Origin: Candidatus Aceula meridiana
GTDB taxonomy: Bacteria > Omnitrophota > Gorgyraeia > Zapsychrales > Aceulaceae
Reading direction: 5' to 3'
Assembly: GCA_030765185.1 (NCBI GenBank)
Contig: JAVCDE010000024.1
Span: forward strand, 315,538-379,537
Length of the DNA: 64,000 nt
Each line of letters begins with the position of its first letter. Within the stretch, counting starts at the first letter, position 1. This document shows positions 7,353 to 35,092 of the stretch, in pieces. The position numbers were made by a program, and so were the translations under genes. The notes under the pieces are model-generated. The model saw nothing but the letters and a program-made list of their open reading frames with translations, was not told the origin of the DNA and did not search any database.

Positions 7353-7355
7353 ACT

Positions 7356-8051
7356 CTACGGAAGGACCTTTTCTCCTCTTAGAATAGGAGGTATCTCCGA
7401 CGTATCAATACGAATCCCACCATCATGCTCGATCTTTAAAGTATAAAGAATGCCTGGGATAAATTTTGTACCTGGAGCCTCAATTTGAGCATTCTTAATG
7501 CCTTCCCGAGAAGCCTTTTTCGAATTAAGCGCATAATCCCAAAACTCGCTCCAAATTTTTTCTTCAAAGGTGCTATGCGCTCCTTTGACTTTATACCCTT
7601 GCGGGATTTGATTGACCGGCGTGATAACATATTCTCTTGTGTTGGCACCGTCTAAAACAAAAACCTTCCAAAAAAGATAAACACTTTTACCGCGCAACGC
7701 ATTTCCCTCGACGATAAACTTATCAGCAAAGCGAGCCACCAAAGATTGAAATTGAATAATATTACTTTGAAATGTAAAGTAACGTGGAACAAGCGGCTGC
7801 CCCAAGCTATCAAATTCAAGAAATTTTATTGTAGTATCATGACTTTGCGTAATAGGATTATATAATACATCTGTTACTAAAACTTCGGCGATACGTGAAT
7901 CGCCTTGAAGACGCACAATCATCTGTTTTAAAATTTCTTTTTCATAAACAAGCTTCATATAGGCTTGATAGCCAAAATAAGCTATCGCTGCAATAAGCAG
8001 TAACGACACAAAAAACTTAATTCTTTTAAAAGAAACTTTTGTTTTTTTCAT
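7356..8051 (-). CDS. hypothetical membrane-anchored protein
   Basis: 231 aa; N-terminal TM helix; 4-nt spacing to downstream gene suggests operon. Confidence 0.35.
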   Translation of the reverse strand: MKKTKVSFKRIKFFVSLLLIAAIAYFGYQAYMKLVYEKEILKQMIVRLQGDSRIAEVLVTDVLYNPITQSHDTTIKFLEFDSLGQPLVPRYFTFQSNIIQFQSLVARFADKFIVEGNALRGKSVYLFWKVFVLDGANTREYVITPVNQIPQGYKVKGAHSTFEEKIWSEFWDYALNSKKASREGIKNAQIEAPGTKFIPGILYTLKIEHDGGIRIDTSEIPPILRGEKVLP

Positions 8052-14348: not shown

Positions 14349-16508
14349 TTAAAATACGGTATTCATCGTTTGTAGAATATAGAAATTCTTCATGTCTACA
14401 TTATCCAAGTAAATTCTATAAAAATCTTCGTTGCTTTCAGCCCCTGTCCTGTAAATAACAACATAATAAGACCCTTGCGAAAGAATAGATTGTTGCGGAA
14501 AATGGAAGGAAACGTTCTGACCATCAGGATTATTGGAAATCTCTCGAGCAGAAACTATTTTAGAAGAAAAATTTTCTCCATAAGGAAGGTAGTAGGGTCC
14601 TTCTTTAGACTTATAATAAAGATAAGCCACAAGACCGTCCTCTGGATTGCCAACCTTATAGATACGCTGTGGCAATTCATTTAAAGCTTGCGGCTTTGAA
14701 ATCTCGAAACTAAATCCAAAAAACTTATAAATAGACGATTTTGTCCCAATATTTCGAATCCCGTTAAAGACAAGATTCTCGAATTCTTTTCGAGGTAAAA
14801 TTTGTTCCGCATCTTGTTTAAGGCGTTTTGCGTCAATGATCCACGCTTTGCCCTTCTCCAAATCTTTATCGGTAAAAATACCTTTTACTAGGTACATATA
14901 TGAGAGGACTTCCTCTTCATGAACCCAAATTCGGCTAGAAGCAATAGTCTGAAAAGAGGCAATGGCATATTTTTCAAGAATATTTCTTTCTAAAATTTCA
15001 TTAAGAAAAATATCTAAATCAAAATCTGAATAATTTTCATAAAAATTATAAATTGCCTTTGTTGTTACCGGCGGGATAAGGATAGCCCCCTCAGAGACTT
15101 GATAAATATTGTTTATATAATTCATCTTATCAAGAGCACCTTGGCTAAGATTCTGGGTAAATTCTTCCCAGAATGGATATCTTTTGTAAGTATAAATCTT
15201 TCTATCTGAGATTTGCTCAATTTTCTTCGAAATATAATTCTTTGCCATTCTGCAAGGAAAAATATCCGTTCCAAAAAGATACACGTTAAAAAGAATATGC
15301 AGAAAAAGAATAAAAGACCCAAAAATCTTTAAAACCCTTCTATGGGATTCCGACAAATTTAAGCGCATAATATGTGAAAGACCATAAGCTAAAAGAAAAA
15401 TTAAACCCACCAAGACTGGATAATAGTTAGCGCCATACTGAGAAATACCTCGTATCTCCATAAAGAGTACTGGTAACCAAACTACGCCAATCAAGAAAAA
15501 AATTCTTATTTTATCTTTCCAGGATTCTTTTACAATGCCTTGAAATAAAAGATAAAAAACACAAACAATAATGACAGGAAAAAGAATAGGCATAATCAGA
15601 ATAAAATATTTAAAAATCCAAATCCATCCCCCTCTCGCATGGACGACATCTCCAGAAATCCATTGCTGCAGAATAGGCTGATTGTAATAAAAATGGTTAC
15701 TATCGCAATTAAGATAAACGTAGTAAAAATAACTTTTGATATTATACAAAATATTAGGATAGTTAAAACAAATGAAAATAGCGGCGAATCCTAAAAAGAA
15801 TAAGAAAAAATGAACTAATAATCCCCTTAAAAGACTCCATCTAAAACTCTGAAATAAAGTAAAACATTTTTCATGATATAGGAAAGCTGCGGCATAATAC
15901 GGAAGATACGCCATTGATGTCGGCGAAGAATGTAATGAAAGGCATAAAAAACAACCAGAAAAAATAAGAAAGAAATTCTTGCGGAGATAGATGCTCGAAA
16001 CCTGAAGGAGATAAAAAGCTAAAAGAAAATTCAATAAGCCTAAAGGCTGATGTTTAGGAAATAGCAAATAAAGAAAAGACCAAACACAAGTAATAAATAC
16101 AAAGTAGCAAATAAGACCAACGGCTCTGCCAAAATAATTTCGAAGAATAAGAAAAATTAAGACTGCGGACCCTGCAAATGAAAGAGTTAAAAGAATAACT
16201 AAGGGATTAAGCGTTTCATAGTCTTTGAATATTCTCTGAAAGATTGCTAACAAAAAAAACAAAACTTCTTTTCCATGAAGCCAGACTTGATGATTGTTGT
16301 CAAAACCCTTATGTATTTCAGAAATAAAATGAACATCAAAAATATTCTTTGCTGTTTTAAGATAATAGACATCTGCATCGGTCGGAAAAGGAAGCATATC
16401 CCATGTCATTGCAATAAAACAACCTGCAATAACTAGCGAAACGCAGACAACAAAGAACGTTGTCCGCGTATTAAAAAGGATTCTAATTTGTCTAATACAA
16501 GAACGCAT
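14349..16508 (-). CDS. polytopic membrane protein with large C-terminal soluble domain (possible GT-C-type glycosyltransferase)
   Basis: 719 aa; ~11 TM in N-terminal 400 aa; first loop PFPTDADVYY; C-terminal ~300 aa hydrophilic. Confidence 0.4.
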   Translation of the reverse strand: MRSCIRQIRILFNTRTTFFVVCVSLVIAGCFIAMTWDMLPFPTDADVYYLKTAKNIFDVHFISEIHKGFDNNHQVWLHGKEVLFFLLAIFQRIFKDYETLNPLVILLTLSFAGSAVLIFLILRNYFGRAVGLICYFVFITCVWSFLYLLFPKHQPLGLLNFLLAFYLLQVSSIYLRKNFFLIFSGCFLCLSLHSSPTSMAYLPYYAAAFLYHEKCFTLFQSFRWSLLRGLLVHFFLFFLGFAAIFICFNYPNILYNIKSYFYYVYLNCDSNHFYYNQPILQQWISGDVVHARGGWIWIFKYFILIMPILFPVIIVCVFYLLFQGIVKESWKDKIRIFFLIGVVWLPVLFMEIRGISQYGANYYPVLVGLIFLLAYGLSHIMRLNLSESHRRVLKIFGSFILFLHILFNVYLFGTDIFPCRMAKNYISKKIEQISDRKIYTYKRYPFWEEFTQNLSQGALDKMNYINNIYQVSEGAILIPPVTTKAIYNFYENYSDFDLDIFLNEILERNILEKYAIASFQTIASSRIWVHEEEVLSYMYLVKGIFTDKDLEKGKAWIIDAKRLKQDAEQILPRKEFENLVFNGIRNIGTKSSIYKFFGFSFEISKPQALNELPQRIYKVGNPEDGLVAYLYYKSKEGPYYLPYGENFSSKIVSAREISNNPDGQNVSFHFPQQSILSQGSYYVVIYRTGAESNEDFYRIYLDNVDMKNFYILQTMNTVF

Positions 16509-16553
16509 TTATAAAATTATTGTGTTGAATTTATTAACTATTTGAAAACAAAA

Positions 16554-18995
16554 CTATTTCTTTAAAAACATTCCGAAAAAAAGCGTATTCAAAAAATATA
16601 AAATTAAGGCTAAGGATAAAACAAAGTTGAACCCTAGAAACTGTGCAACCGTAATGGCCAAAATCGATCCCAAAACACTAAATCCGCTATTAATGCCCCA
16701 CGCCCAAGGAATTGCATCTGGAAAATCTTTACTGAGGAACTGCAGCCCGGCCGGAAAAAAGAAACCGAGGGTCAACCCAACAGGAAAAATAAGAAGACAA
16801 GCCCCCAGGGCTCTTACAGCAAAAGAATAGTTAATAAGAAGATCGACAACTTTTCCTGCCCCAAAAATTAACAGAAGCAAAAAAGCAGCAAGCATAAAGA
16901 AAAAGCTTCGATGAAGAAAAACTTTTGATTTTAATGATTTCTCGAGGAAAGAAGCCAGCAGGCTTCCTAGACCTGAGGAAAAAAGAATCGCGGCCAAAGT
17001 AATCGAGATTGAATAAATCGGGCTTCCTAACAATAATACAAATTTCTGCATCAAAGGAATTTCAACAAACATAAATCCTAAGCCCAAAGTTGCAAAATAG
17101 GCGATAAACGATACTTTTTTACACCTAGGGATGGCTTTTATGCCAGTTTTTTTTGAAAGAAAAAGAGGAAGAAAAATAAACAAAAAGATAAAAATAAGCG
17201 CCTGCAAGAGAACAAGAATCTGAGTCAAAAACATGACTGTTCCTAAATGATGCTCCCGAATAACATTAAAAGGATTAAAAGAGCTAATCTTGTAATGCTT
17301 ATAAAAGAATGGATCATTGTCTGTTACAACCGAAACGTCGAAAGGATACCTCTTCTCAAAGGCCTCTCTCTCGCCCTGCCGGAATGCTGCAAGGTAGGAA
17401 TCAAAAATAATTGGCATTGGATACTCTATGTTAGATGGAAAAATGAATAACTCATTCTTATTTCTTAAATACTTGATGATTTGTTCTCTCTCATCTTTTA
17501 AAAATGGCGTCTTCTTGATAAGCATTTGCCAAGACTCGCCTCCGCCAATAATAATATGCTCCCACGGTCTTTGCGCTCCCATAGTCTTAAGGGCGTCTAG
17601 GGCAATGGCATAAAGCCTTAAGCTCTCGCGTGGCGGATATCCTGTCCAACAGCGACAGAAACTAATCCTCCCGTCATCCTTGAGAACGCTAAGATAATCA
17701 AGAATAGCTTCCTTTGTGTATAAATAGCTTTCGGAATATGTATAAGCGCCCGTTGATAAACCAGAGAAGGTGTCGACTAGATTGACAATTAAAAGATCAA
17801 AGTCACCATCTTTAAATCTTTTTACAAAATGTCGACCATCAACAGGATAAATTTTAACTCCCTCTAGTCCGTAAACCTTCCCAGAATATTCATAAAGTGG
17901 CCCACCTTCAGACATTGCGCGAAATATCCCTGGATTAATCTCTGCGCCAGCTACTGCGTGGGCATCATGACTTTTGGCAATAAAAATATCCCGACCACCG
18001 CCAGTCCCGATGATAAGAACTTTCGGCTGACGAAGCCCGACATAGCAAGCTTCACTATCAAGACTAAAAACTTTTAACTGAGAATTCTTTTCGGCAAGGC
18101 CTTCTGAAGATAGCTTATAGACAACAGTCCCTGCCAAAAAATTATTTGAAATATAGGCTAAGTCTGGGGCTGGGGTTACATTAATTTGAAAAGTTTTACG
18201 ATTGAATTTCCGAATCTTCTTTTGATTTTCCTTGCCTTCCACTCGAACGACATCTACACGACCCAAAGGTGTCCATTTTGAATAAAGATTTTTATATTGT
18301 CCTTCTGAGAAAGTTCCAGGAAGGTACTCCCAACCTTTCGCCTCATCAATTTTATAATTCTGGACTTCAGGTATTTTTATAAAGCCTACGAGGAAAACAA
18401 TAGTCAGGATAGCAAAAAGTATTTTATATTTGGCATTTCTCTTAGCTATCCATAAAAAAGAAAGGCAGAGCCCGATAAAACATAACAAAGCAACAGAATG
18501 TACGATCGCCAAAGAATTGATTAAAGGGTAAAAAAGAACGGTTCCTAAACTAGCTCCGGCAAGGTCAAAGAAATAAATTATAAAATTCTTTTTGGGATTT
18601 GTATGAAAAATGTACGAAATAAGAAAACCTATGACAACAAATGGAACAGCTAAGATAGAATAAGAAAGAAGCAACATAAAGATCCCATGGAGATTCTTAA
18701 ACAAATCAACCAGGTAAGATATCTGGGTAGGAAAATAAATAAGCGTGACCATGCTTAAAAACGTCAAAACCGAAGCTAACGCTAAACATATGGGAACAAC
18801 ATGCTTCTTTCCTGCTAGCTTTTCTTTATTTAAAATATAGGCGTTCGCTCCAATTCCATATCCAAGTATGGCAAAAGGAATAACGATGTAAACGACATGG
18901 TTCCATGTTTTTAAATTGAGAACTTGCGTTGCAAACAATTCAAAAGAAAGCGCTAATGACGAAACATAAAATATAGAAATGTAGGAAAGAAGCAT
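16554..18995 (-). CDS. spermidine-synthase-like aminopropyltransferase domain fused to polytopic membrane domains
   Basis: 813 aa; central VLIIGTGGGRDIF...AVAGAEINPGIF Rossmann/AdoMet-type motif of SpeE-like fold, flanked by N- and C-terminal TM bundles. Confidence 0.55.
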   Translation of the reverse strand: MLLSYISIFYVSSLALSFELFATQVLNLKTWNHVVYIVIPFAILGYGIGANAYILNKEKLAGKKHVVPICLALASVLTFLSMVTLIYFPTQISYLVDLFKNLHGIFMLLLSYSILAVPFVVIGFLISYIFHTNPKKNFIIYFFDLAGASLGTVLFYPLINSLAIVHSVALLCFIGLCLSFLWIAKRNAKYKILFAILTIVFLVGFIKIPEVQNYKIDEAKGWEYLPGTFSEGQYKNLYSKWTPLGRVDVVRVEGKENQKKIRKFNRKTFQINVTPAPDLAYISNNFLAGTVVYKLSSEGLAEKNSQLKVFSLDSEACYVGLRQPKVLIIGTGGGRDIFIAKSHDAHAVAGAEINPGIFRAMSEGGPLYEYSGKVYGLEGVKIYPVDGRHFVKRFKDGDFDLLIVNLVDTFSGLSTGAYTYSESYLYTKEAILDYLSVLKDDGRISFCRCWTGYPPRESLRLYAIALDALKTMGAQRPWEHIIIGGGESWQMLIKKTPFLKDEREQIIKYLRNKNELFIFPSNIEYPMPIIFDSYLAAFRQGEREAFEKRYPFDVSVVTDNDPFFYKHYKISSFNPFNVIREHHLGTVMFLTQILVLLQALIFIFLFIFLPLFLSKKTGIKAIPRCKKVSFIAYFATLGLGFMFVEIPLMQKFVLLLGSPIYSISITLAAILFSSGLGSLLASFLEKSLKSKVFLHRSFFFMLAAFLLLLIFGAGKVVDLLINYSFAVRALGACLLIFPVGLTLGFFFPAGLQFLSKDFPDAIPWAWGINSGFSVLGSILAITVAQFLGFNFVLSLALILYFLNTLFFGMFLKK

Positions 18996-19217
18996 ACGCT
19001 AAAATTTTAAATAATCAATGGTTACCAAGCTTGTTTTAAAAACCCATCAAGCATCGTGGCTCGGACGAAAACTCACCAACGCACGATTCTTTTTAAGATA
19101 AATAAAAACCTCTTCCCTCTCGAAAAAGAAGTCTTTTGGTGTTGAAAATAAAAAAATGGTGGCACTGAGATTTTTTAAGGCAATCTCAATATCCACCAAG
19201 ATTTGCGAAAAAATCTT

Positions 19218-19238
19218 GGTGGAGGCGAGGAGAATCAA
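19218..19238. repeat. att direct repeat (left boundary), partial copy of tmRNA 3' end
   Basis: TGGTGGAGGCGaGGAGAATCA vs tmRNA-end TGGTGGAGGCGcGGAGAATCG. Confidence 0.7.
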
Positions 19239-19457
19239 TCAAGCAATTCTTCACAACCCCTTTATTTGCAATGATTTTACTAAATTATCGTCGAGAATGC
19301 AAGAATAATTATTGTGCGAGGAGTTACATTTAGATACGCTCAAGTGCGAGGGTTTTGATGTGGGATGGGCACCATTTGGGCACCATTCTTCTGTGTGCCA
19401 GATTCGTGACAGGTTTTAAAAACATTCAGACTATAAAGAGGATCAGTTTTTTCATTA

Positions 19458-20507
19458 CTATTCGATAGATTTCCCAAAATAGGCATACCACCCATCGGTT
19501 AAATATCCTGTTTTCTTCAACACAATATCACTAATGTAAATCTTCCCATCAAACGCAAAGATAAAATATCGCATATCATCGGACATCCCCCTAGGCCATA
19601 TCATGCTATACCCTGGTGCGTTCGCGCCAAGAAATCGTACTAATAGCTTTTCATTTCCATTCTCCTTCACCATCAAACTGCCAGAATTATTTTTGTATAC
19701 TGTAATCTTTTGATTACCGAACACTCTTCCATGATTAGCAATTCCCCTATTATTTGGCCCCCAGTAAACTTCTCGATCATCAATATAGCCAACCTTCCCA
19801 AATCGAGCTGAATAGGCAGGCGAATTTTCATAAATTTTTATGTTTTTCATTTTAGTAATTTCTTTTGAAATAAGATCGTATTGAAAAAATGCCTTTTCAA
19901 AATTTCCATAATAGTTATTACCTAAGTGAAATCTAAGTTTATTCTCTAAAAAAATCCTCTTTCCATCGTTAGCGACAGACAACTGAGACATCTCTTGAGG
20001 CGTATCAATGACTTCCTTTGTGCCGTCTTTTATGTTAAAAATACAGAGTTTCTTGCCATACATCATTAAATAAGCGAATCTGTTCCCGTCAGGGAACCAC
20101 GCTGGCTCCCAACAATTTTGACCCTTTTCGATAATGTTCATCTTCCCACTGTCTAAATCAATAAGGACTATTCCTACAGCATAAGTTGATGCATTATATG
20201 TCCGAGCCAATATTTTCGTTCTGTCAGGTGATATCTTAGAATCATCCTCATCAAAATCAACATTATCACACACTTTCTTCTCATTCCTACCCTGAAGATT
20301 CATTGAAAAAAGCGAATGCCCTTTTATCACATAAACTTTCTGACTCCCATCAATCCATGAAGTATCTGGCAAAACGCCAAGCATTCTTCCTTCTCGATTA
20401 ACTACAAAAATAAAAAAGAAAAAAATGACTGTTATTGTAATAGCTGCTGCAATGATAGCACCAATAAACAAAAAAACTTTCTTCATCACAATCTCCTTTT
20501 TAAACAT
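19458..20507 (-). CDS. membrane-anchored beta-propeller (TolB/WD40-like) protein, island cargo
   Basis: N-terminal TM helix then repeated ...DG(S/T/N)...(I/V/F) units typical of TolB-like propellers; 349 aa. Confidence 0.4.
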   Translation of the reverse strand: MFKKEIVMKKVFLFIGAIIAAAITITVIFFFFIFVVNREGRMLGVLPDTSWIDGSQKVYVIKGHSLFSMNLQGRNEKKVCDNVDFDEDDSKISPDRTKILARTYNASTYAVGIVLIDLDSGKMNIIEKGQNCWEPAWFPDGNRFAYLMMYGKKLCIFNIKDGTKEVIDTPQEMSQLSVANDGKRIFLENKLRFHLGNNYYGNFEKAFFQYDLISKEITKMKNIKIYENSPAYSARFGKVGYIDDREVYWGPNNRGIANHGRVFGNQKITVYKNNSGSLMVKENGNEKLLVRFLGANAPGYSMIWPRGMSDDMRYFIFAFDGKIYISDIVLKKTGYLTDGWYAYFGKSIE

Positions 20508-20650
20508 TCTAACACGCTGCTCAAAAAAATTCTAAAAGTTATTGGAATTTAGTGTGTGTCTCTATAAATAAAAAAGACCCCGCCAAGGGGGTGTTGCGAC
20601 TTTTCTGGAGATTTTTACCCGACCATCAGGCTACGAACCTGATTCTTTTA

Positions 20651-20722
20651 CTTCCTAACTTATTGATATAAAACAAAAAGGCACATAACCTTGTGAGCTA
20701 TGTGCCAGATTTGTGCCAAAAT
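20651..20722. repeat. ~72-bp repeated intergenic element, copy 1 (hairpin GGCACATAAC..TATGTGCC + T-run on minus strand)
   Basis: ~66/72 identical to 35021-35092; on the minus strand it forms an 8-bp stem followed by TTTTTGTTTTAT, i.e. an intrinsic terminator after the cargo operon. Confidence 0.65.
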
Positions 20723-20780
20723 TAAATATCAAAACGCTTTTTTTATTGCTGACTGAACATTTTCATTCGGCTAGCCGCTT

Positions 20781-21548
20781 TCATCCATGCTTAGCTTTTT
20801 CTTTAAGGCTCTCTTTCCACAAAGTAGGATTAATCTTAACATTAAACTTTTCATGAACTAAACACATAAAATAAGATAATGCTTGAGACACCCTAAAAGA
20901 GTCAAACGTCCATTTGTCGCCGAGAGATGAAACATCTTCATGCACAGCTTGGTTTCTGCAAGCGTCCATCTTTTTAATTTCTTCAATGTCAAAAAGGTAA
21001 TCTCTAATCGGCTGGTAACCCTTGGGAGGTTCGCATAAAGCAAAAAGTATATCAATCTTATCTAAGAGTGATTTTCTTTCCAGCTTCTCTTTTTCGATAA
21101 ACTCACTAATTATTTCTTCTTCCTTTTTTTGTATATCAAGAAATTTAACTTTTTTCTCTCCGTACCTACCCGCAAATGACAATACCGACACCTCCTTAAC
21201 TACTTTAATCATGTCGTAAAGAAAACTATCGATAACTGAATGTGCAAAAATCAACACAGATGCATCAAAGAAATTCTTTGTATTATCAGCATCTAGCTTT
21301 GCCATAGATTTTGCTATCTCTCCGCTTCCCCCTGAACTATCAAAAAACCCCTTCTTATCAATGAAGATGCTATCGTACTGGCTGCCCTTTTCCATTTCAC
21401 TTACAAATCTTTCCGCCTCTTGCTGAAACTTACCATTAATTTCATTTTCTAGTGAGAAATAAGCTCTTCTAAATTGACTAATCTGATGTATTTTTTGAGT
21501 GGCGTTTATCCATGAAGTTGTGAATAACCTCTCCGCATTTTCGTTCAT
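20781..21548 (-). CDS. hypothetical protein, island cargo gene B (HEPN-like Rx4H motif; possible NTase-like GS..DxD motif)
   Basis: 255 aa; C-terminal ACRNQAVHED (R-x4-H); N-terminal half FFDSSGGSGEIAKSMAKLDADN (GS-x11-DxD); 30-nt gap to upstream gene A. Confidence 0.45.
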   Translation of the reverse strand: MNENAERLFTTSWINATQKIHQISQFRRAYFSLENEINGKFQQEAERFVSEMEKGSQYDSIFIDKKGFFDSSGGSGEIAKSMAKLDADNTKNFFDASVLIFAHSVIDSFLYDMIKVVKEVSVLSFAGRYGEKKVKFLDIQKKEEEIISEFIEKEKLERKSLLDKIDILFALCEPPKGYQPIRDYLFDIEEIKKMDACRNQAVHEDVSSLGDKWTFDSFRVSQALSYFMCLVHEKFNVKINPTLWKESLKEKAKHG

Positions 21549-21578
21549 TCTCGTTCTCCTTTGCTGAATTCTTCTCTC

Positions 21579-22217
21579 TTAGCTAGTGACAAACGGAAAG
21601 AACCCGTTCGGCTCTGGCAACAATTTGGCGATCGCATGGCCACTAGTATTTTTGACAAAAGCCGGAGCAAGAAGCCAGACTTCATTAAAAGGTTCAATAG
21701 GCATATCACCACAATGTGCATATAGTTTATCTAGCATTAAATTATTTTTATCAAAATTTAAATATATCAATAAGTTTGTACTCCTAACTACGCTATATTT
21801 CTTGTCGAGCTTCTTCTGAATTGCCTGTCTCGCATACATCAACGCTTCTTCCAAGGCAATAGGTCGGTATTCTTTTGCTTCAGACGGCCTTCCCTTCTTG
21901 ACCCACTCTCTATATTCCTCTGTTCTTTTACGTCCTTCTTTTTGTCTTTCTGTAATTTGATAGTCAACAATTTCATTATCAATCTTAACAATTGCATCAG
22001 CTGGCTCTTCATGGTTCTCGCCCATTTTAACCTGCACGGCACAATGCTTTAACTTCTGGAATCCTATACAAAAGTGAGAAATTATCCAAGCCTCCATTAC
22101 GATGTCATAACCGGTCTCAATAAAAATTCTCTCATCGTTCAAAGGTTTGATCTCAGCCAACAGTTGATCTGGTGACTGAAAAATAAAGAAATTCTTAGAA
22201 ATTTCACTCATGTGCAA
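21579..22217 (-). CDS. hypothetical protein, island cargo gene A
   Basis: 212 aa; charged central segment ERQKEGRKRTEEYREWVKKGRPSEAKEYRP; no family recognised; operonic with gene B. Confidence 0.45.
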   Translation of the reverse strand: MHMSEISKNFFIFQSPDQLLAEIKPLNDERIFIETGYDIVMEAWIISHFCIGFQKLKHCAVQVKMGENHEEPADAIVKIDNEIVDYQITERQKEGRKRTEEYREWVKKGRPSEAKEYRPIALEEALMYARQAIQKKLDKKYSVVRSTNLLIYLNFDKNNLMLDKLYAHCGDMPIEPFNEVWLLAPAFVKNTSGHAIAKLLPEPNGFFPFVTS

Positions 22218-22407
22218 TATTTTAACATAATGGTTAAGGGAATTATAAATAAAAATGCGGATAACACAAGCGGATAATTGTGGCTGCTGAATAAATTATC
22301 TTTTTCACCGACCCTCAGACTGGCAACCTGAAGGTCATGAAAGACAAAGCATTGCAGATACATTAGCTATATTTTTGCTAGTCGGTTAAAAAGCCGACCA
22401 GCTTTTG

Positions 22408-22599
22408 TTATGGAGTTCTTTTATTTTTAAAAAACTCAATAACTACCTGAGGTTCAAACCGCAAATACTTTCCTAATTTCACATGCGGAATAGCCTCCAG
22501 ACCTTGACAGGTCCTTTGATAGATCCAGCTAACGGGAACACTGAGGATTTGCGCCATCTCTTGAACTGATACCAGTCTCATTTGTTCCATAATATTCAT
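22408..22599 (-). CDS. AlpA/excisionase-family HTH DNA-binding protein
   Basis: 63 aa; MAQILSVPVSWIYQRT...LPHVKLGKYLRF motif of excisionase-type HTH_17; overlaps XRE gene by 1 nt. Confidence 0.6.
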   Translation of the reverse strand: MNIMEQMRLVSVQEMAQILSVPVSWIYQRTCQGLEAIPHVKLGKYLRFEPQVVIEFFKNKRTP

Positions 22600-22802
22600 T
22601 ATTCATCCAAGAAATATGATGTAGGTTTCTTGAGAACCTTGGAAACCTTTACTAAAGTCTCCAAGGTAGGCAAAGAAATTCCATTTTCATATCTAGAAAT
22701 ACTTTTTTGTTTAGCTTTTATTTTTTCGGCAAGGTCTGTTTGTGTTAAATCTAATTCTACGCGAGCTATCTTGATTTTCTTTCCTAGTTTTTTCGCATCC
22801 AT
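22599..22802 (-). CDS. XRE-family HTH transcriptional repressor
   Basis: 67 aa; IKIARVELDLTQTDLAEKIKAKQKSISRYENGISLPTLETLVKVSKVL is a canonical HTH_XRE; divergent from a consensus promoter. Confidence 0.8.
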   Translation of the reverse strand: MDAKKLGKKIKIARVELDLTQTDLAEKIKAKQKSISRYENGISLPTLETLVKVSKVLKKPTSYFLDE

Positions 22803-22821
22803 AAAGACTCCTAAATACTAC

Positions 22822-22849
22822 TTGACAAATATACCCTTCAAGGTATAAT
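22822..22849 (+). promoter_or_regulatory. consensus sigma70-type promoter with CCTT-c-AAGG dyad in the spacer
   Basis: TTGACA-16nt-TATAAT; 20 nt from the divergent XRE start; points toward the recombinase gene (phage immunity-region-like layout). Confidence 0.55.
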
Positions 22850-23113
22850 TTAGACATACACGCTAAAATAAAAAATGCACCTAACTGTAATTAATATATA
22901 CCTCTGAATGGATAAAATCAACAATTAAACATTAAAATGCCAGTCTCCGCAATCACCCCAAATATTATTAAGCCCTCATTACAAATTTCTCTGTGCTGGA
23001 AAGATTGCCATTCTGCCCAGAAGGTTCTCGATGTTGTTTGTCAAATTATTGCCTCTGAATACGTTGTGACCGCTAAAGAGCATCCTGAACTTTTTTCGAC
23101 TAAGGAATAATCT

Positions 23114-24829
23114 ATGCGCGCCTCTATTTACGCCAGATACTCTTCTCAAAATCAAAGCGAAAAAAGCATCGAAGACCAGATAAGGGTCTGCAAAAAATAT
23201 TGTACAGAAAACAATATCACGGTTAATGAAAATAGCATCTATATCGATGAAGCTACGTCAGGCTCTCTTGTAAAAAGATTCGGCCTCGGAGCCCTTGAAA
23301 TCGCAGCCGAAAACAAAGAATTCGACGCCATAGTAGTTGACGATCTCTCGCGTCTTTCCAGAAGCAATCACCAGATGCTTACCCTGGTTCTCAAATTTAA
23401 CTACCTTCAAGTCAAGCTCATTTCTGTTTCTGACGGAATCATTACAGATGATGAAAATTCCAAGCTCGGGATTCAGATGCGGGGACTTATTAACGAGCTC
23501 TATCTCGACGACTTAAAGAAAAAAACTATGCGAGGACTTGAAGGACAAAAACTGCGAGGTTTTAGCGCCGGAGAAAGTGTCTACGGCTATCTGACAAATC
23601 CCTTCGGTGATCTAAAAATGAATCGAAAAGGCATAGCGAAATATGAAGGCAAGGTTCACAAGATTAATCCTGATGAAGCCGAGATAGTAAAAAGAATTTA
23701 TTTGGACTTCGTTTCCGGAAAAAGTACTCACAAGATCGTTGAGCAACTCAATATCGATAAAATCCCGACAAAAAAACACCTCAAGGGTGGCTGGAACATA
23801 TCAACGGTCTGCCGAATCCTTAAAAATGAGAAGTACATCGGTATCTGGAAATGGAAGACACATAAAAGCGTTAGAGACCCAATTACGGGGAAGAGAAAAT
23901 CTATCTCTCGCCCAGAAAGCGAACATCTCTCCTTCTCTCGGGAAGATCTTATTATCATTAATAAAGAGCTCTGGAACAAGGCCCAGGAGCACTGGGCCGA
24001 CCTTAAAGGAACCTGGCCAATAAGCAAGAAAAAGAAAACTTACTATCAACAGAAAAGCTATGTTCACACTAGCCCTACTCACCTATTCTCAGGGCTGATG
24101 AAATGCAAAGCCTGCGGAGGTGCTATTTTGCTTGTCAGCGGTAAAGGATTAGGATATTACGGCTGTTACAATGCCCGGCGAAAAACCTGCAACAACACCC
24201 TGCTCGTTCCTCGTAAAAGGCTTGAGCAGATCATCATTGGTAAGCTGCGAGAAAAACTGCTAACCACGAATAACCTAGAATATGTTTATCGGAATATCGA
24301 AAAACTAATTGCCTCAGGACTCAACGAAGTCCCTGAATTGACAAAAAAGAAAAAGGCACAACTTGAAAAAATTAAGACAGAAATGCACAATTATCTAAAT
24401 TTTATTAGGGCTGGAAATTTCTCAAAGACCGTATCTGAGGCCTTGAATGAAGCGGAAAAGAAAAACAGCGAACTGGAGCAAGAAATTACGGCCTTAGAAT
24501 TTCAACAAAATAATAATTTTAAGGCGCCGCCGAAAGAATGGATCAGTCATCGGCTAGAACGACTAACTGAAACGCTAAACAAAGATACCGTCGCCTCTTC
24601 CTCAGCGCTTAAAGAACTATTGTCACCGATAACCCTTGAGCCTATCTTAAATAAAGAAGTCGACTTATATCGCCTTTTTGAAGGCAACGACAAGGAATTC
24701 AAGCCCTATTACGTAGCCCATACAAAAATCAACACCTTGTCCCTATTAGACGAGAAGGGCCAAGGTGCGAATTGGTATCAATGGTGGAGGCGCGGAGAAT
24801 CGAACTCCGGTCCTTGTGTTACCCAATAA
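23114..24829 (+). CDS. large serine recombinase (site-specific integrase)
   Basis: N-terminal resolvase catalytic domain (ASIYARYSSQNQSE...QIRVC, Ser nucleophile), recombinase domain, C-terminal zinc-ribbon Cys pairs and coiled-coil; 571 aa; last 16 codons are encoded by the tmRNA 3' end. Confidence 0.9.
   Translation: MRASIYARYSSQNQSEKSIEDQIRVCKKYCTENNITVNENSIYIDEATSGSLVKRFGLGALEIAAENKEFDAIVVDDLSRLSRSNHQMLTLVLKFNYLQVKLISVSDGIITDDENSKLGIQMRGLINELYLDDLKKKTMRGLEGQKLRGFSAGESVYGYLTNPFGDLKMNRKGIAKYEGKVHKINPDEAEIVKRIYLDFVSGKSTHKIVEQLNIDKIPTKKHLKGGWNISTVCRILKNEKYIGIWKWKTHKSVRDPITGKRKSISRPESEHLSFSREDLIIINKELWNKAQEHWADLKGTWPISKKKKTYYQQKSYVHTSPTHLFSGLMKCKACGGAILLVSGKGLGYYGCYNARRKTCNNTLLVPRKRLEQIIIGKLREKLLTTNNLEYVYRNIEKLIASGLNEVPELTKKKKAQLEKIKTEMHNYLNFIRAGNFSKTVSEALNEAEKKNSELEQEITALEFQQNNNFKAPPKEWISHRLERLTETLNKDTVASSSALKELLSPITLEPILNKEVDLYRLFEGNDKEFKPYYVAHTKINTLSLLDEKGQGANWYQWWRRGESNSGPCVTQ
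24782..24802. repeat. att direct repeat (right boundary) inside tmRNA 3' end
   Basis: see left repeat; lies in T-arm/acceptor/CCA region of tmRNA. Confidence 0.7.
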
Positions 24830-25179
24830 TAGCCTCTACATGCATAGTTTGTTTTTTAGAATCTCATCTCAGTCACTTTAAACAAACAAACATTACTGAA
24901 ACCAGCCTTTTAAATCTCATTTCACTAATAAAGGCAACCAGTGAAACCAGCCTACTAAATGACCTCTCTTAAAACCCGTAGACAAAACTCTAAGAAAGGG
25001 CCTAGTTTGGTTAAACTAGGGCTGGTTCGCCAGCGAAAATCGGTTCAACGATTTCGTTAGCTTGCGCAATTAGTGTATTTGCGTTTAATTTGTGCCAGGA
25101 TGATTAACGAGGCCAACCAGGCGTCCTCGGCATGCCACTACTATCGGAGTCAAACTCAAGTCGAAACCAGGTCGCCCCC
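24782..25179 (-). ncRNA. ssrA: tmRNA (SsrA)
   Basis: minus strand 5' GGGGGCGACCUGGUUUCGAC...GCAUGCCGAGG... and 3' ...CCGGAGUUCGAUUCUCCGCGCCUCCACCA; acceptor stem with G3-U70 wobble; adjacent to smpB. Confidence 0.8.
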
Positions 25180-25240
25180 ATAGTGAAAAAAGTATACTTG
25201 ATGAAAGAAGAAAATGCAAGGGGTAGTTAAAAGACAAGGT

Positions 25241-25726
25241 CTATTTTCTACTTGTTCGTACGGCTCTATCTAAGTCCTTCTTGATATCACGCTTTTTAAT
25301 GGTTTCGCGCTTATCATAAAGTTTTTTACCCTTCACAAGCCCAAGACTCACCTTCACAAAATTATGTTTATTCAAAAAAATAGATAAAGGAACCAAGGTC
25401 AGGCCTTTTTGAATCATTTGACCTAAAATCTTTTTGATTTCGTTTTTATGCAAAAGAAGTTTACGCGCGCGGTCGCTGTCAGGATTTAAATAGCTTGCTT
25501 GCGCATACGGGTCGATATGAAGGCTGTGCAAAAGAATTTCTTTTTTCTCAATACGGGCAAAACTGTCTCTAAAATGAACATGCCCTGCGCGAACAGACTT
25601 GACTTCGCTTCCCTTTAGTTCGATACCGCACTCATAGCGATCGACAACAAAGTAGTTGCGAAAAGCTTTTTTATTAGTTGCAATATTTTTTGATTCCATA
25701 GGACAAGACTTTCTTTCTTTTGACAA
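25241..25726 (-). CDS. smpB: SsrA-binding protein SmpB
   Basis: NKKAFRNYFVVDRYECGIELKGSEVKS...HIDPY...LLLHKNEIKKI motifs of SmpB; likely true start at internal ATG (25699). Confidence 0.9.
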   Translation of the reverse strand: MSKERKSCPMESKNIATNKKAFRNYFVVDRYECGIELKGSEVKSVRAGHVHFRDSFARIEKKEILLHSLHIDPYAQASYLNPDSDRARKLLLHKNEIKKILGQMIQKGLTLVPLSIFLNKHNFVKVSLGLVKGKKLYDKRETIKKRDIKKDLDRAVRTSRK

Positions 25727-35020: not shown

Positions 35021-35092
35021 TTTCCTAACTCATTGATATAAAACAAAAAGGCACATAACTTTGTGAGCTATGTGCCAAATTTGTGTCAATTT
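35021..35092. repeat. ~72-bp repeated intergenic element, copy 2
   Basis: near-identical to 20651-20722; hairpin GGCACATAAC-ttt..-TATGTGCC with T-run on minus strand; located between convergent lptG and deaminase genes. Confidence 0.65.

Follow-up and report, generated by a model that had tools for sequence, protein, structure and literature searches.

The ssrA islands of Dehalococcoides (DsiB; 2011, BMC Genomics 12:287; PMC3146451) are the closest described precedent for the locus studied here and have the same anatomy. Other islands and prophages that occupy tRNA and tmRNA genes do so by means of tyrosine integrases (Williams 2002/2003; Islander, PMC4383910), and streptococcal integrative and conjugative elements (ICEs) use a single serine integrase to enter rumA (Ambroset et al. 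2016, PMC4701971). We analysed a window of 64,000 nucleotides from Candidatus Aceula meridiana (GenBank assembly GCA_030765185.1, contig JAVCDE010000024.1, positions 315,538 to 379,537) and report that the segment from approximately 19223 to 24788 (~5.57 kb) is probably a small integrative element, which its own large serine recombinase (LSR) would have inserted at the 3' extremity of ssrA by site-specific recombination between attP and attB. A sequence-only reading had seen here the "classic" signature of such an insertion; the anatomy stands, while "classic" does not, since targeting of tRNA and tmRNA genes (tDNA) is classically a property of tyrosine integrases, with one serine precedent described (Dehalococcoides).

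The ssrA locus and its direct repeat

The tmRNA gene, which adjoins smpB, is intact as had been read from the letters (Table 1). Specifically, it aligns with the whole of Rfam RF00023 (181.7 bits, model positions 1-374); T-arm and acceptor stem are both preserved, G3:U70 included, and ARAGORN gives the tag peptide as AQANEIVEPIFAGEPALV. On the smpB side the locus is syntenic with its relatives.

Table 1. Features of the ssrA locus; att-site assignments are predictions (positions are those of the window)
Feature	Position	Strand	Basis or remark
Putative displaced native ssrA 3' tail with downstream hairpins (B arm of the old attB)	19150-19223	-	
attL core, second copy of the 20-nt tmRNA end	19217-19236	+	19/20; mismatch at 19228 (A, C in attR)
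Non-coding conserved island terminus, P' side	19237-19395		Direct repeats GGGCACCAT x2, GTGCGAGG x2
Cargo ORF, 349 aa	19458-20507	-	N-terminal membrane/signal segment, weak beta-propeller (PD40/TolB-like) similarity
Terminator-like hairpin 3' of the 255-aa gene	20652-20719	-	Within 68-nt repeat
Cargo ORF, 255 aa, HEPN-domain protein	20781-21548	-	Remote homologs
Cargo ORF, 212 aa	21579-22217	-	
HTH_17/excisionase-family DNA-binding protein, 63 aa	22408-22599	-	Pfam PF12728, 28.7 bits (cut-off 27)
XRE/Cro-CI-type HTH regulator, 67 aa	22599-22802	-	Pfam HTH_3, 5.1e-16
Conserved promoter/operator block	22813-22857	+	Sigma-70 promoter scan
p57, conserved 57-aa ORF	22937-23110	+	tblastn
LSR, 571 aa as integrated	23114-24829	+	Pfam domains
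P-arm half-site GGTGCGAATTGGTATC, within the LSR reading frame	24764-24779	+	36-locus consensus
attR core, last 20 nt of functional tmRNA	24782-24801	+	Repeat, Rfam, 36-locus consensus
B' half-site, T-loop motif AATCGAAC	24798-24805		
tmRNA (ssrA), intact	24782-25179	-	ARAGORN; Rfam RF00023
smpB, host gene, conserved side of the locus	25241-25726	-	Pfam SmpB, 2e-55

The repeat TGGTGGAGGCG[A/C]GGAGAATC is present in exactly two copies in the 64-kb window, both on the plus strand and with starts 5,565 bp apart; 19 of its 20 nt are identical, the sole mismatch being position 12, and base 21 differs between the copies. The sequence-only reading was right that the repeat is direct and has two copies, and has to be corrected in length (20 rather than 21 nt) and left coordinate (19217 rather than 19218). 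No match to the repeat was obtained in 100 dinucleotide-preserving shuffles, and the ~175-nt terminus next to its left copy is likewise single in the window. The G+C content of the island is not distinct. At the right copy the LSR ORF runs through the att site, as had been noted, and its stop falls 48 nt within the tmRNA gene; 24782-24829 comprises its final 15 codons and the stop, antisense to the tmRNA 3' end. At the left copy the tmRNA terminal UCCACCA pairs with bases downstream of it in a 13-bp stem, after which come another hairpin and a U-run, and the fold of 19150-19245 (minus strand; -27.9 kcal/mol, z = -4.8, 0 of 200 shuffles equally stable) indicates that tail and flank still form terminator-like hairpins.

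In the nearest available relative, whose SmpB is 83% identical, the tmRNA gene ends in the same way and no recombinase follows it. Three related loci (L125-127) have smpB-side synteny and the tmRNA end in common with the window and lack the LSR; their native tmRNA end agrees with attR of the window, not with attL. In the closest relatives both LSR and cargo are missing from an otherwise syntenic locus. We found neither an island-free genome of this species nor an exact empty site that retains the left flank. That flank (an 813-aa gene) is syntenic with ssrA in no relative, and compared with the sequence that follows ssrA in the nearest relative it shows no significant similarity.

The congener Ca. 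Aceula lacicola carries two LSR-less units downstream of ssrA, which are bounded by tmRNA-like repeats and share the ~175-nt terminus. The terminus of the window is 80% identical to L128:12137-12313 over 177 nt (tblastx, blastn), including a nearly identical block of ~80 nt, and a second copy lies at L128:18962-19136. These units bear on an alternative in which the repeat at 19217 is not attL but a tmRNA 3' fragment of separate and earlier origin, left as a scar by a previous island, with the true left end lying elsewhere and the 5.6 kb being composite. Tandem accretion in A. lacicola and Dehalococcoides fits such a history, as do the two or three tandem attL sites in L024 and L031, the 17/22 tRNA-Ser 3' fragment 160 nt outside the LSR-type attL of L030, and an identity of 20 nt, which is long for a serine recombinase. 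We nevertheless consider it unlikely: there is no better candidate for the P' arm between 12000 and 23000, repeat and terminus are single in the window, the terminus directly abuts a tmRNA-like repeat in three independent copies, and Dehalococcoides LSR islands also show 20-bp repeats with one fixed mismatch (PMC3146451).

The recombinase clade and its attachment sites

The LSR matches the Pfam families Resolvase (7.8e-27), Recombinase (1.3e-20) and Zn_ribbon_recom (5.8e-8), its Y-A-R-Y-S10 lines up with the catalytic region of the TP901-1 integrase, and more than 100 homologs align with it across 98-100% of its length. The best named family is NCBIfam CcrB (E = 3.9e-29; 101.7 bits against a cut-off of 900 bits), and identity to phage and plasmid LSRs is at most ~30% in the collections searched. 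The protein and its relatives form a tight clade, 57-81% identical, from Omnitrophota, Chlamydiota and other metagenome-assembled genomes. In 35 of 41 related loci the LSR ORF enters the 3' end of a tRNA or tmRNA gene, convergent every time (tRNA-Ser 24, tmRNA 8, tRNA-Asp 3), and of the 120 closest LSR proteins at least 74 have tRNA-antisense tails. Two separate kinds of evidence, the overlap in 35 of 41 loci and the nearest relative without a recombinase, favour the proposed integrative element. A chance repeat beside an ordinary resident recombinase gene that merely abuts ssrA, with no island at all, would agree with the undistinctive G+C content and the lack of a same-species empty site, but is hardly credible given 0 matches in 100 shuffles, the family-wide link to tDNA 3' ends with its nucleotide-exact geometry, and the absence of LSR and cargo in the closest relatives.

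The P-arm consensus of the family, GGTTCGAATTGGT (36 loci), reproduces the tRNA T-arm in inverted form. It lies within the last conserved LSR codons, …G-S/A-N-W…, where G-S-N is written GGT TCG AAT with one synonymous codon each (33/33, 30/30 and 36/36, respectively); neighbouring conserved residues use almost all synonymous codons. The distance from P arm to T-arm motif is a constant 43 nt (31/31 loci). The junction consensus AAGGGTTCGAATTGGTnnCAnTGG is under DNA-level constraint, and the fixed codons together with an inverted T-arm copy at constant spacing argue that a recombinase half-site is located inside the recombinase gene.

Moreover, in L024, L026 and L031 the P' arm, at the far end of the element and at the predicted distance, is the exact reverse complement of the locus's own P arm (16/16; 13/16 in L030), and variant bases co-vary between the two arms. 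The chlamydial attP is a 16-bp inverted repeat with a 16-bp spacer, centred on a GA that lies 6-7 nt before the tRNA terminus; compared with attP, the tRNA has its T-arm motif 5 bp nearer the centre. This offset matches the motif-distance geometry of serine integrases that Rutherford et al. reportedly described in 2013. Identity to the tRNA ends exactly after position 7 in L032 and after position 6 in L042. No attL was located for the Omnitrophota loci other than that of the window. By comparison with these relatives, the crossover dinucleotide of the window would be the GA at 19222-19223 (attL) and 24787-24788 (attR). The parental sites were reconstructed as …AAAAAATCTTGGTGGAGGCGCGGAGAATCGAACTCCGG… (attB) and …GGTGCGAATTGGTATCAATGGTGGAGGCGAGGAGAATCAATCAAGC… (attP).

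In the model we favour, that of an LSR-integrated element, attP would span the 3' end of the LSR gene, whose last conserved codons would double as a P-arm half-site mimicking an inverted T-arm, with crossover at the GA that lies 6-7 nt before the tmRNA terminus. The TGGTGGA that follows the P arm would substitute for the terminal …TCCACCA of tmRNA, so that ssrA would stay intact, while the native tail and its terminator hairpins would have been shifted 5.6 kb away, to attL. The LSR would also swap its C-terminal tail, from 38 element-encoded residues in the circle to 15 tmRNA-antisense-encoded residues in the chromosome, and tail reconstruction predicts 594 aa for the circle form. No such protein form or circular junction is on record.

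The window departs from the chlamydial pattern at P', where it meets the palindromic expectation at 5 of 16 positions as against 13-16 of 16; it instead copies tmRNA at positions 8-20 (12/13), a stretch in which chlamydial members share only 4-9 nt. It is possible, although we lean against it, that a genuine LSR-integrated element is now a fossil, having lost excision because its element-side half-site decayed, with the 5.6 kb becoming fixed chromosomal DNA like the A. lacicola units. Those units persist without a recombinase, the LSR genes or junctions of L034, L037 and L038 are disrupted or truncated, and the missing record of a circular junction also fits. However, no domain is missing from the complete LSR ORF, the promoter of p57 and LSR is a perfect consensus, neither the XRE gene nor the operator block is damaged, and attL and attR agree at all but 1 of 20 positions. 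The attP sites of well-studied serine integrases are imperfect palindromes, and the other Omnitrophota junctions (L032, L042) likewise lack palindromic P' arms, which suggests that the Omnitrophota subclade may use a different P'. Where the sequence-only reading took the element to be probably still excisable, we would say only that it may excise.

Core module and cargo

A core module is common to the relatives and consists of a divergent XRE gene, a consensus promoter, p57 and the LSR. The XRE protein, a putative repressor, recurs in the corresponding place in 21 related loci (65-81% identical). The promoter/operator block, 80-92% identical in at least 12 loci of different lineages, contains a perfect sigma-70 consensus (TTGACA-16-TATAAT, 22822-22849; promoter scan 12/12) directed towards the p57-recombinase operon. 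p57 ends 3 nt upstream of the recombinase start codon and has tblastn matches in the corresponding interval of ~30 loci (lowest E 7e-12), with no match in the profile libraries. The sequence-only reading, whose gene list lacked p57, correctly placed an XRE gene and three further ORFs (212, 255 and 349 aa) between the repeats. Its "AlpA-like excisionase" is an HTH_17/excisionase-family gene by a match that is marginal. The 63-aa product matches PHROG 66 "excisionase and transcriptional regulator" (6e-5) and, below cut-off, TIGR01764 (E = 0.0029); no tblastn match was obtained in other related loci, and the protein is a candidate directionality factor.

The 212-aa cargo protein has no match in Pfam, PADLOC, PHROGs, NCBIfam or PDB sequences, and its AlphaFold single-sequence model (pLDDT 35) is unusable. 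The 255-aa protein, without a direct Pfam or PADLOC match, has 407 remote homologs (E <= 0.001); in a 40-sequence alignment H103, R198 and H203 are invariant, the latter two within R198-N-Q-A-V-H203, and 6 and 2 of the 40 members match Pfam HEPN_RiboL-PSP and HEPN_Apea, respectively, suggesting an RNase-type toxin or defence protein. The 68-nt repeat behind its gene recurs at 35022-35089 (94% over 68 nt, blastn), and a terminator with an 11-bp stem and T-run was predicted at 20706-20680 (minus strand). For the 349-aa protein the Pfam PD40 match (E = 3.6e-4) falls just short of the cut-off, NCBIfam propeller matches are weak, and PADLOC and PHROGs gave none. The element has no replication, packaging or transfer genes and would thus rely on other systems for movement between cells.

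Comparison with known systems

The Dehalococcoides islands, like the present element, are integrated at the ssrA 3' end, lie between ssrA and a 20-bp direct repeat with one fixed mismatch, encode a CcrB-like LSR of ~540-570 aa at the ssrA-proximal edge whose ORF always overlaps the att site and stops outside the island, and lack transfer genes. They also resemble Ca. Aceula lacicola in tandem accretion and recombinase-less units. In contrast, the six-gene module of Dehalococcoides (DsiA small serine recombinase, RecF-like protein, ParB, Mom, a tRNA-like locus and an RNA-polymerase-domain protein) is absent here; the core is instead XRE, promoter, p57 and LSR, the host phylum is Omnitrophota, and the LSR clade (compared with DsiB by description) also targets tRNA-Ser and tRNA-Asp.

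SCCmec elements with CcrB are likewise small and non-conjugative, and occupy the 3' end of a gene that is both essential and single-copy, whereas the present element has no CcrA partner and targets ssrA, not rlmH. An att site inside the integrase gene is also found in the streptococcal rumA ICEs and in phage Mx8, and in all three integration therefore alters the length and sequence of the integrase C-terminus; however, the rumA ICEs are conjugative elements of Firmicutes whose protein-coding target is altered by integration, and the Mx8 integrase is a tyrosine recombinase.

The phage serine integrases (A118/LI, TP901-1, Bxb1, phiC31) share with this LSR the order resolvase, recombinase, zinc ribbon, and with the chlamydial attP an inverted repeat of ~48 bp, a non-palindromic dinucleotide and a distal motif 5 bp further out than in attB. 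Here, unlike in those phages, the target is the T-arm of an RNA gene rather than a protein-coding or intergenic site, and one half-site is embedded in the integrase coding sequence. Finally, the tyrosine-integrase islands agree with the present locus in the intact tDNA with its restored 3' end, the displaced direct 3' fragment and the integrase beside the tDNA, but their enzyme family is unrelated, and their arm-type attP of ~250 bp differs from the short palindromes and shared core of 4-9 nt of the chlamydial members. The LSR clade is large and barely described, and its targeting of tRNA and tmRNA gene ends is a role usually ascribed to tyrosine integrases.

Anatomy and gene content of the ssrA island

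We consider it likely that the ~5.6-kb segment between two copies of the tmRNA 3' end is an integrative element. The sequence-only reading of this locus, an intact tmRNA gene and a displaced 3' fragment in direct orientation with an integrase gene between them, was essentially right, and the same features make up the Islander signature, except that the latter includes a tyrosine integrase: the sole recombinase of the island is serine-type, and no tyrosine-recombinase domain was detected among the island ORFs scanned. The single tmRNA gene predicted by ARAGORN is a full-length match to the Rfam tmRNA model (181.7 bits, model positions 1-374), and the alignment shows a regular T-arm as well as a G3:U70 pair within the acceptor stem. 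Its 3' end, read on the plus strand, is TGGTGGAGGCGCGGAGAATC (24782-24801), and the pattern TGGTGGAGGCGNGGAGAATC has one further occurrence in the 64-kb window, in the same orientation at 19217-19236; this left copy had been placed one base too high (19218-19238). The pattern gave 0 matches in 100 dinucleotide-preserving shuffles, and the sole difference between the two copies is position 12 (A left, C right). As had been proposed, the ORF of the large serine recombinase (LSR) crosses the att site, and its last 15 codons and stop overlap the tmRNA gene in antisense. Recombinase and SmpB each have a 100% identical protein on record in an NCBI MAG of Candidatus Aceula meridiana (phylum Omnitrophota).

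Table. Features of the ssrA island and its tmRNA-side border, from left to right
Feature	Position	Strand	Remark
Repeat	19217-19236		tmRNA-distal end of island
Non-coding stretch	~160 nt after repeat		short internal direct repeats
349-aa ORF		minus	weak beta-propeller similarity
Terminator-like hairpin	between 349-aa and 255-aa ORFs		
255-aa ORF	20781-21548	minus	HEPN superfamily
212-aa ORF	next to 255-aa ORF	minus	
HTH_17/excisionase-family ORF, 63 aa	22408-22599	minus	
XRE-type HTH ORF, 67 aa		minus	
Promoter	22822-22849	plus	TTGACA-16-TATAAT, perfect
p57, 57-aa ORF	22937-23110	plus	
Recombinase (LSR), 571 aa	23114-24829	plus	
tmRNA gene (ssrA)	24782-25179	minus	
smpB	beyond tmRNA gene		

No replication, packaging or conjugation gene was found in the island (Table), and searches with PADLOC, PHROGs, NCBIfam and PDB sequences gave no identification of the 212-, 255- and 349-aa cargo proteins. 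The 255-aa protein had no direct match in any profile library and a word-index homolog search returned only the protein itself, while an exhaustive HMMER search gave 407 remote homologs. Across 40 aligned homologs H103, R198 and H203 never change, corresponding to the HEPN Rx4H motif (class motif Rx4-6H), and PF18735 (HEPN_RiboL-PSP) was matched by six of the 40; we therefore read the protein as HEPN-type. The single-sequence AlphaFold model is all-helical, at low confidence (pLDDT 40), in keeping with the all-alpha domain of the superfamily. By family membership this protein is probably a toxin or defence RNase. For the 212-aa protein the corresponding model has a pLDDT of 35. The 349-aa protein was also compared with a 343-aa protein of an ssrA-associated unit in Ca. 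Aceula lacicola, and the two are unrelated. The 63-aa protein had been called an AlpA-like excisionase; its HTH_17 domain scores above the Pfam cut-off (28.7 vs 27 bits), but TIGR01764 stays below its own cut-off. Serine integrases act unidirectionally and need a directionality factor for excision; both this protein, which is present in the window only, and p57, which is family-wide, are candidates for that role. For the Ca. Aceula meridiana genome, 5.6 kb are thus identified as accessory DNA with a probable HEPN toxin/defence gene.

A 68-nt sequence is present both in the island after the 255-aa gene (20652-20719) and ~14 kb away outside it (35022-35089). The two copies are 94% identical and contain a terminator-like hairpin (11-bp stem, then a T-run). 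The sequence might be a terminator module used at both places, or else a small repeat element.

The recombinase clade and its attachment sites

The LSR has a resolvase domain (PF00239, E = 7.8e-27, residues 5-149) in which the motif I-Y-A-R-Y-S10-S, with the serine nucleophile, aligns with I-Y-T-R-V-S-T of the TP901-1 integrase and is invariant in 33 relatives. PF07508 (Recombinase, 1.3e-20) and PF13408 (zinc ribbon, 5.8e-8) are present in the order expected for large serine recombinases, and a coiled-coil is hinted at by DMPK_coil (E = 0.0022, below cut-off). Among named families CcrB scores best, at 101.7 bits, far below the equivalog cut-off of 900; the island has no further recombinase as CcrA partner and sits in ssrA and not in rlmH, which places the protein outside the SCC Ccr group. 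The nearest recombinases in the phage and plasmid collections searched are ~30% identical, and no relatives were found in IMG/VR viral contigs. A protein search gave 651 relatives, the best 120 of which are 63-100% identical and mostly from Omnitrophota. Among these 120 the C-terminal tails resemble translated antisense tRNA: …NWYQ-W-RRGWDSNPG… corresponds to TGG (CCA end), the acceptor strand and GGATTCGAACC. The T-arm signature is present in the tails of at least 74 of the 120, and ~20 have the tmRNA-typical TGGTGG start.

Scanning one genome per GTDB species gave 41 loci. In 35 of the 41 loci the recombinase ORF enters the 3' end of a convergent RNA gene, which is tRNA-Ser in 24 (anticodons TGA, GGA, CGA or GCT), tmRNA in eight (including L004, where the contig ends inside the gene) and tRNA-Asp in three. 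In L021, L025, L027 and L039 the locus sequence stops before the recombinase 3' end (at a contig end in L021, L025 and L027); L037 is truncated and L032 enters non-tRNA sequence. The clade members are 57-81% identical, and their record titles name Omnitrophota, Chlamydiota, Elusimicrobia and Auribacterota, together with a few implausible labels that may be binning errors. Near-identical XRE-p57-recombinase modules are found on contigs labelled Aenigmatarchaeota archaeon, Actinomycetota, Actinomycetes, Eubacteriales and Clostridia (L017, L023, L027, L007 and L034); since these are mostly short MAG contigs, mis-binning is likelier than true hosts. The core module, i.e. the XRE gene, a 45-nt promoter block and p57, occupies the same positions in most loci, and the genes of the window outside the XRE-p57-LSR module are unconserved across related loci. 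In a rough neighbour-joining tree of the recombinases, without support values, the tRNA-Asp users group together, and the tmRNA users fall into two sets within the tRNA-Ser users, a pattern suggesting that the clade switched target more than once.

In the closest related locus (L001, recombinase 78% identical) the LSR gene also lies in ssrA. Housekeeping genes (Rrf2 regulator, methionine biosynthesis, PdxJ, GAPDH; L001:8707-9688) start ~350 bp beyond the XRE gene, so this element may comprise just ~2.3 kb, XRE-p57-recombinase alone; no recognisable end was found on its far (left) side.

The consensus of 36 aligned junctions reads …AAGGGTTCGAATTGGTnnCAnTGGCGGAGG…GGGATTCGAACCC…. Near the conserved protein end, GGTTCGAAT encodes G-S-N and corresponds, in reverse complement, to the T-arm motif of tRNAs, ATTCGAACC. 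In each of the 31 loci in which both motifs could be recognised, the span from this P-arm motif (the element half-site) to the T-arm motif is 43 nt. The codons at the P arm are fixed (Gly GGT in 33/33, Ser TCG in 30/30 with six codons possible, Asn AAT in 36/36), while Leu, Ala, Pro, Thr and Tyr residues just upstream, conserved to the same degree, draw on almost the full set of synonymous codons. Judged from this codon usage, conservation of G-S-N acts on the DNA and not on the protein, and because of this constraint we infer that the end of the recombinase gene doubles as a half-site. GG at positions 5-6, counted from the tRNA 3' end, is invariant (36/36 junctions). Identity to the tRNA end stops right after position 7 in L032 and right after position 6 in L042.

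The geometry of a partner half-site was predicted from a centre between positions 6 and 7, and it was matched exactly at the far end of four chlamydial elements (4.1-9.3 kb), with 16/16 matches in L024, L026 and L031 and 13/16 in L030. Each partner is the reverse complement of the element's own P arm, private variants included, and these co-vary (GTACG with CGTAC in L024, ATTCG with CGAAT in L031). Accordingly, the chlamydial attP is a 16-bp perfect inverted repeat with a 16-bp spacer and a GA centre. The T-arm motif of the tRNA lies 5 bp nearer the crossover centre than the attP motifs; a 5-bp offset is said to separate attB from attP half-sites in the serine-integrase structural model of Rutherford et al. 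from 2013. The core shared by attL and attR in these elements is only 4-9 nt. Palindromic P' arms were detected only in the chlamydial subclade, and a search of the relatives for far-end repeats with a minimum of 16/22 matches, or of 9 nt in an exact stretch, succeeded in L030 only.

Two of the chlamydial loci have two or three tandem attL-type sites upstream of one recombinase gene (L024:2046, 3762 and 5370; L031:2370 and 3108), spaced 0.7-1.7 kb and built of CGGAC, an 11-nt spacer and half of the P'-arm palindrome; the host-side arm AAAGACTT is common to all three L024 sites. This suggests either repeated integration with decay or recombinase-less mini-elements. In L030, a 17/22 copy of the tRNA-Ser 3' end (7355-7376) lies 160 nt outside the recombinase-type attL at 7515; it may have been left behind by another island that used this tRNA earlier. 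Several recombinase genes of this clade enter non-tRNA sequence (L042:11655-11730, L043, L044:6255-6345 and L032:1390-1470). Such genes may belong to unintegrated (attP) forms or sit where two tandem elements meet. Behind the LSR genes of L042-L044 neither a tRNA nor an Rfam family was found, and L042, L044 and protein P0020 share the conserved tail CSCDE(V/I)R(T/N)FYRQN, with synonymous changes between them.

On balance, we are inclined to regard these recombinases as a large serine-integrase clade that spans several phyla and is specialised in tRNA-Ser, tRNA-Asp and tmRNA 3' ends, with a T-arm half-site, a mimic of their own and repeated retargeting. Across MAGs of Omnitrophota, Chlamydiota, Elusimicrobiota and Auribacterota, such integrases would read the near-universal T-arm sequence (GGTTCGAAT/ATTCGAACC) as distal half-site motif and carry its mimic (P-arm motif GGTTCGAATTGG) within the last codons of their own gene. 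Crossover would occur at GA (or GG) in the acceptor stem, the element supplying only the last ~6 nt of the RNA. Retargeting among tRNA and tmRNA genes could recur since all tRNAs share most of the sequence that is recognised. Each integration would also swap the recombinase 3' end for antisense tRNA or tmRNA sequence, with the transcript pointing into a highly expressed RNA gene, and the integrated copy might for this reason be down-regulated; such integration-dependent down-regulation is speculative, and we think it improbable.

Host relatives and mobility of the window element

No second genome of the same species was found by exact look-ups of the LSR and of an 813-aa flank protein in the assembly index, and an exact 31-mer from the tmRNA 3' region had no match in JGI metagenomes. 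The closest SmpB (83% identical) is encoded in three assemblies (L125-L127), and the next useful relative is Ca. Aceula lacicola (69%, L128-L131). All share with the window a gene order on the smpB side (lpd, histidine kinase, DUF192, Maf/M48, phosphoribosyltransferase, LptF/G), which reaches the tmRNA gene and ends there. An island-free allele, as the sequence-only reading anticipated among relatives, was recovered in part. In L125-L127 ssrA is unoccupied: the last 60 nt of the tmRNA are those of the window but for one base and are directly followed by unrelated sequence, with no recombinase within 5 kb of sequence behind the gene. This is not a precise empty site, however; the genes beyond ssrA differ between the window, L125-L127 and A. 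lacicola. The native end in L125-L127, …CTCCGCGCCTCCACCA, matches the right-hand copy of the window, so the odd base of the left copy would either have come with the element or have arisen later, by mutation in a fragment without function.

The left flank of the island (14349-18995) holds genes for multi-pass membrane proteins of 719 and 813 aa, without Pfam or NCBIfam match. Relatives of the 813-aa protein are common in metagenomes (best 49% identical) and never adjoin ssrA there, and hence gave no empty site. Aligned in MAFFT with the sequence behind ssrA in the nearest relative, the left flank showed a suggestive similarity, which was no better than in shuffled controls and is discounted here. 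The smpB-ssrA gap is only 61 nt in the window (25180-25240), and a GNAT acetyltransferase gene (156 aa) lies between these genes in the nearest relative (L125:9720-10190; also L126 and L127). The tmRNA tag predicted by ARAGORN for the window is AQANEIVEPIFAGEPALV and would end in LV vs …EPVLA in the two closest relatives; the C-terminal residues of the tag normally matter for protease recognition.

Downstream of ssrA, A. lacicola has two stretches (1.35 and 6.8 kb), each ending in the ~175-nt terminus of the window island (80% identity over 177 nt, with an 80-nt block almost identical) followed by a tmRNA-3'-like repeat. Neither contains a recombinase, and they look like a tandem accretion of recombinase-less units, by analogy with Dehalococcoides. 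In the window, the displaced tmRNA tail and the flank downstream of it still form a 13-bp hairpin, after which come another hairpin and a U-run (z = -4.8), as expected of the original ssrA terminator region. The A. lacicola units lie at L128:10931-12433 and 18962-19136 (same in L129-L131), and the second one has housekeeping-like genes (DEAD helicases, ABC-F, MazG, RsmH). There the last 22 nt of the tmRNA, together with 125 nt of flank, occur twice at a distance of 1,356 bp (79% identity), a duplication longer than a site-specific crossover would leave.

The P arm of the window, GGTGCGAATTGGTATC (24764-24779), its spacing and its GGA core fit the family, and by analogy with the relatives the crossover would lie at GA (24787-24788 and 19222-19223), in an 11-nt block identical in both copies and before the mismatch. 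The element would then supply just the last six or seven nucleotides of the tmRNA, the attP junction on the circle would read CCAAGGTGCGAATTGGTATCAATGGTGGAGGCGAGGAGAATCAATCAAGCAATTCTTC and the empty attB GATTTGCGAAAAAATCTTGGTGGAGGCGCGGAGAATCGAACTCCGGTCC. Reconstruction of the circle predicts a 594-aa recombinase ending …WWRRGESIKQFFTTPLFAMILLNYRRECKNNYCARSYI, compared with 571 aa ending …WWRRGESNSGPCVTQ in the chromosomal form; tail lengths vary freely among relatives and, as a consequence, nothing points to a function of the tail. Inverted half-sites, a 2-bp crossover and the ~5-bp attP offset are all found in the chlamydial relatives, while in the window the palindromic partner of P matches P' at a weak 5/16 positions, with an ATCAAT core roughly in register, and positions 8-20 of P' copy the tmRNA (12/13). 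Either ssrA-targeting members use another kind of P' arm, the two A. lacicola termini having P' of the same kind, or the P' of the window is decaying. That the window copy is no longer mobile is possible, and we hold it to be somewhat doubtful.

Significance and comparison with known systems

The island alone is a further case of a known, rarely reported kind, and the moderate interest of the finding lies in the clade and its site build. The use of tRNA and tmRNA genes as integration sites counts as a hallmark of tyrosine integrases, whereas here a conserved serine-integrase clade in poorly studied phyla does so, with a site architecture legible from the sequence (T-arm mimic in the integrase ORF, fixed 43-nt geometry, GA crossover). 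Island finders that need a tyrosine integrase or long repeats will miss its elements, given the short chlamydial repeats. As a natural series of close serine integrases with different RNA-gene targets, the clade should be useful for studies of specificity reprogramming, and integrases with attB in conserved tRNA sequence could be landing-site tools for uncultivated or genetically intractable bacteria. To our knowledge, the listings of TIGER (Mageeney et al. 2020) being outside the scope of this statement, the clade and its site build have not been described.

An att site inside the integrase gene is known for streptococcal ICEs in rumA, where the C-terminus of the serine integrase changes, and for phage Mx8, which has a tyrosine integrase (PMC4701971). 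The closest likeness is to the ssrA-specific genomic islands of Dehalococcoides (PMC3146451). On the side of ssrA they are bordered by the gene of a CcrB-like LSR, DsiB; in every case its ORF overlaps the att site and reaches a stop only in ssrA or the neighbouring island. They also have a 20-bp ssrA repeat with one fixed mismatch; the window island has an edge LSR overlapping att and a far repeat of similar length, also with one mismatch. Both recombinases are "CcrB-like" by nearest named family, and the window LSR is likened to DsiB by description. Dehalococcoides also has tandem and recombinase-less islands without transfer genes, as seen here in the recombinase-less units of A. lacicola and the lack of transfer genes in the window. 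The two differ in their modules: that of Dehalococcoides has six genes (DsiB, DsiA, a RecF-like protein, ParB, Mom with an embedded tRNA-like locus and an RNAP-domain protein), none of whose domains occurs in the island ORFs, whereas the module here is XRE-p57-LSR.
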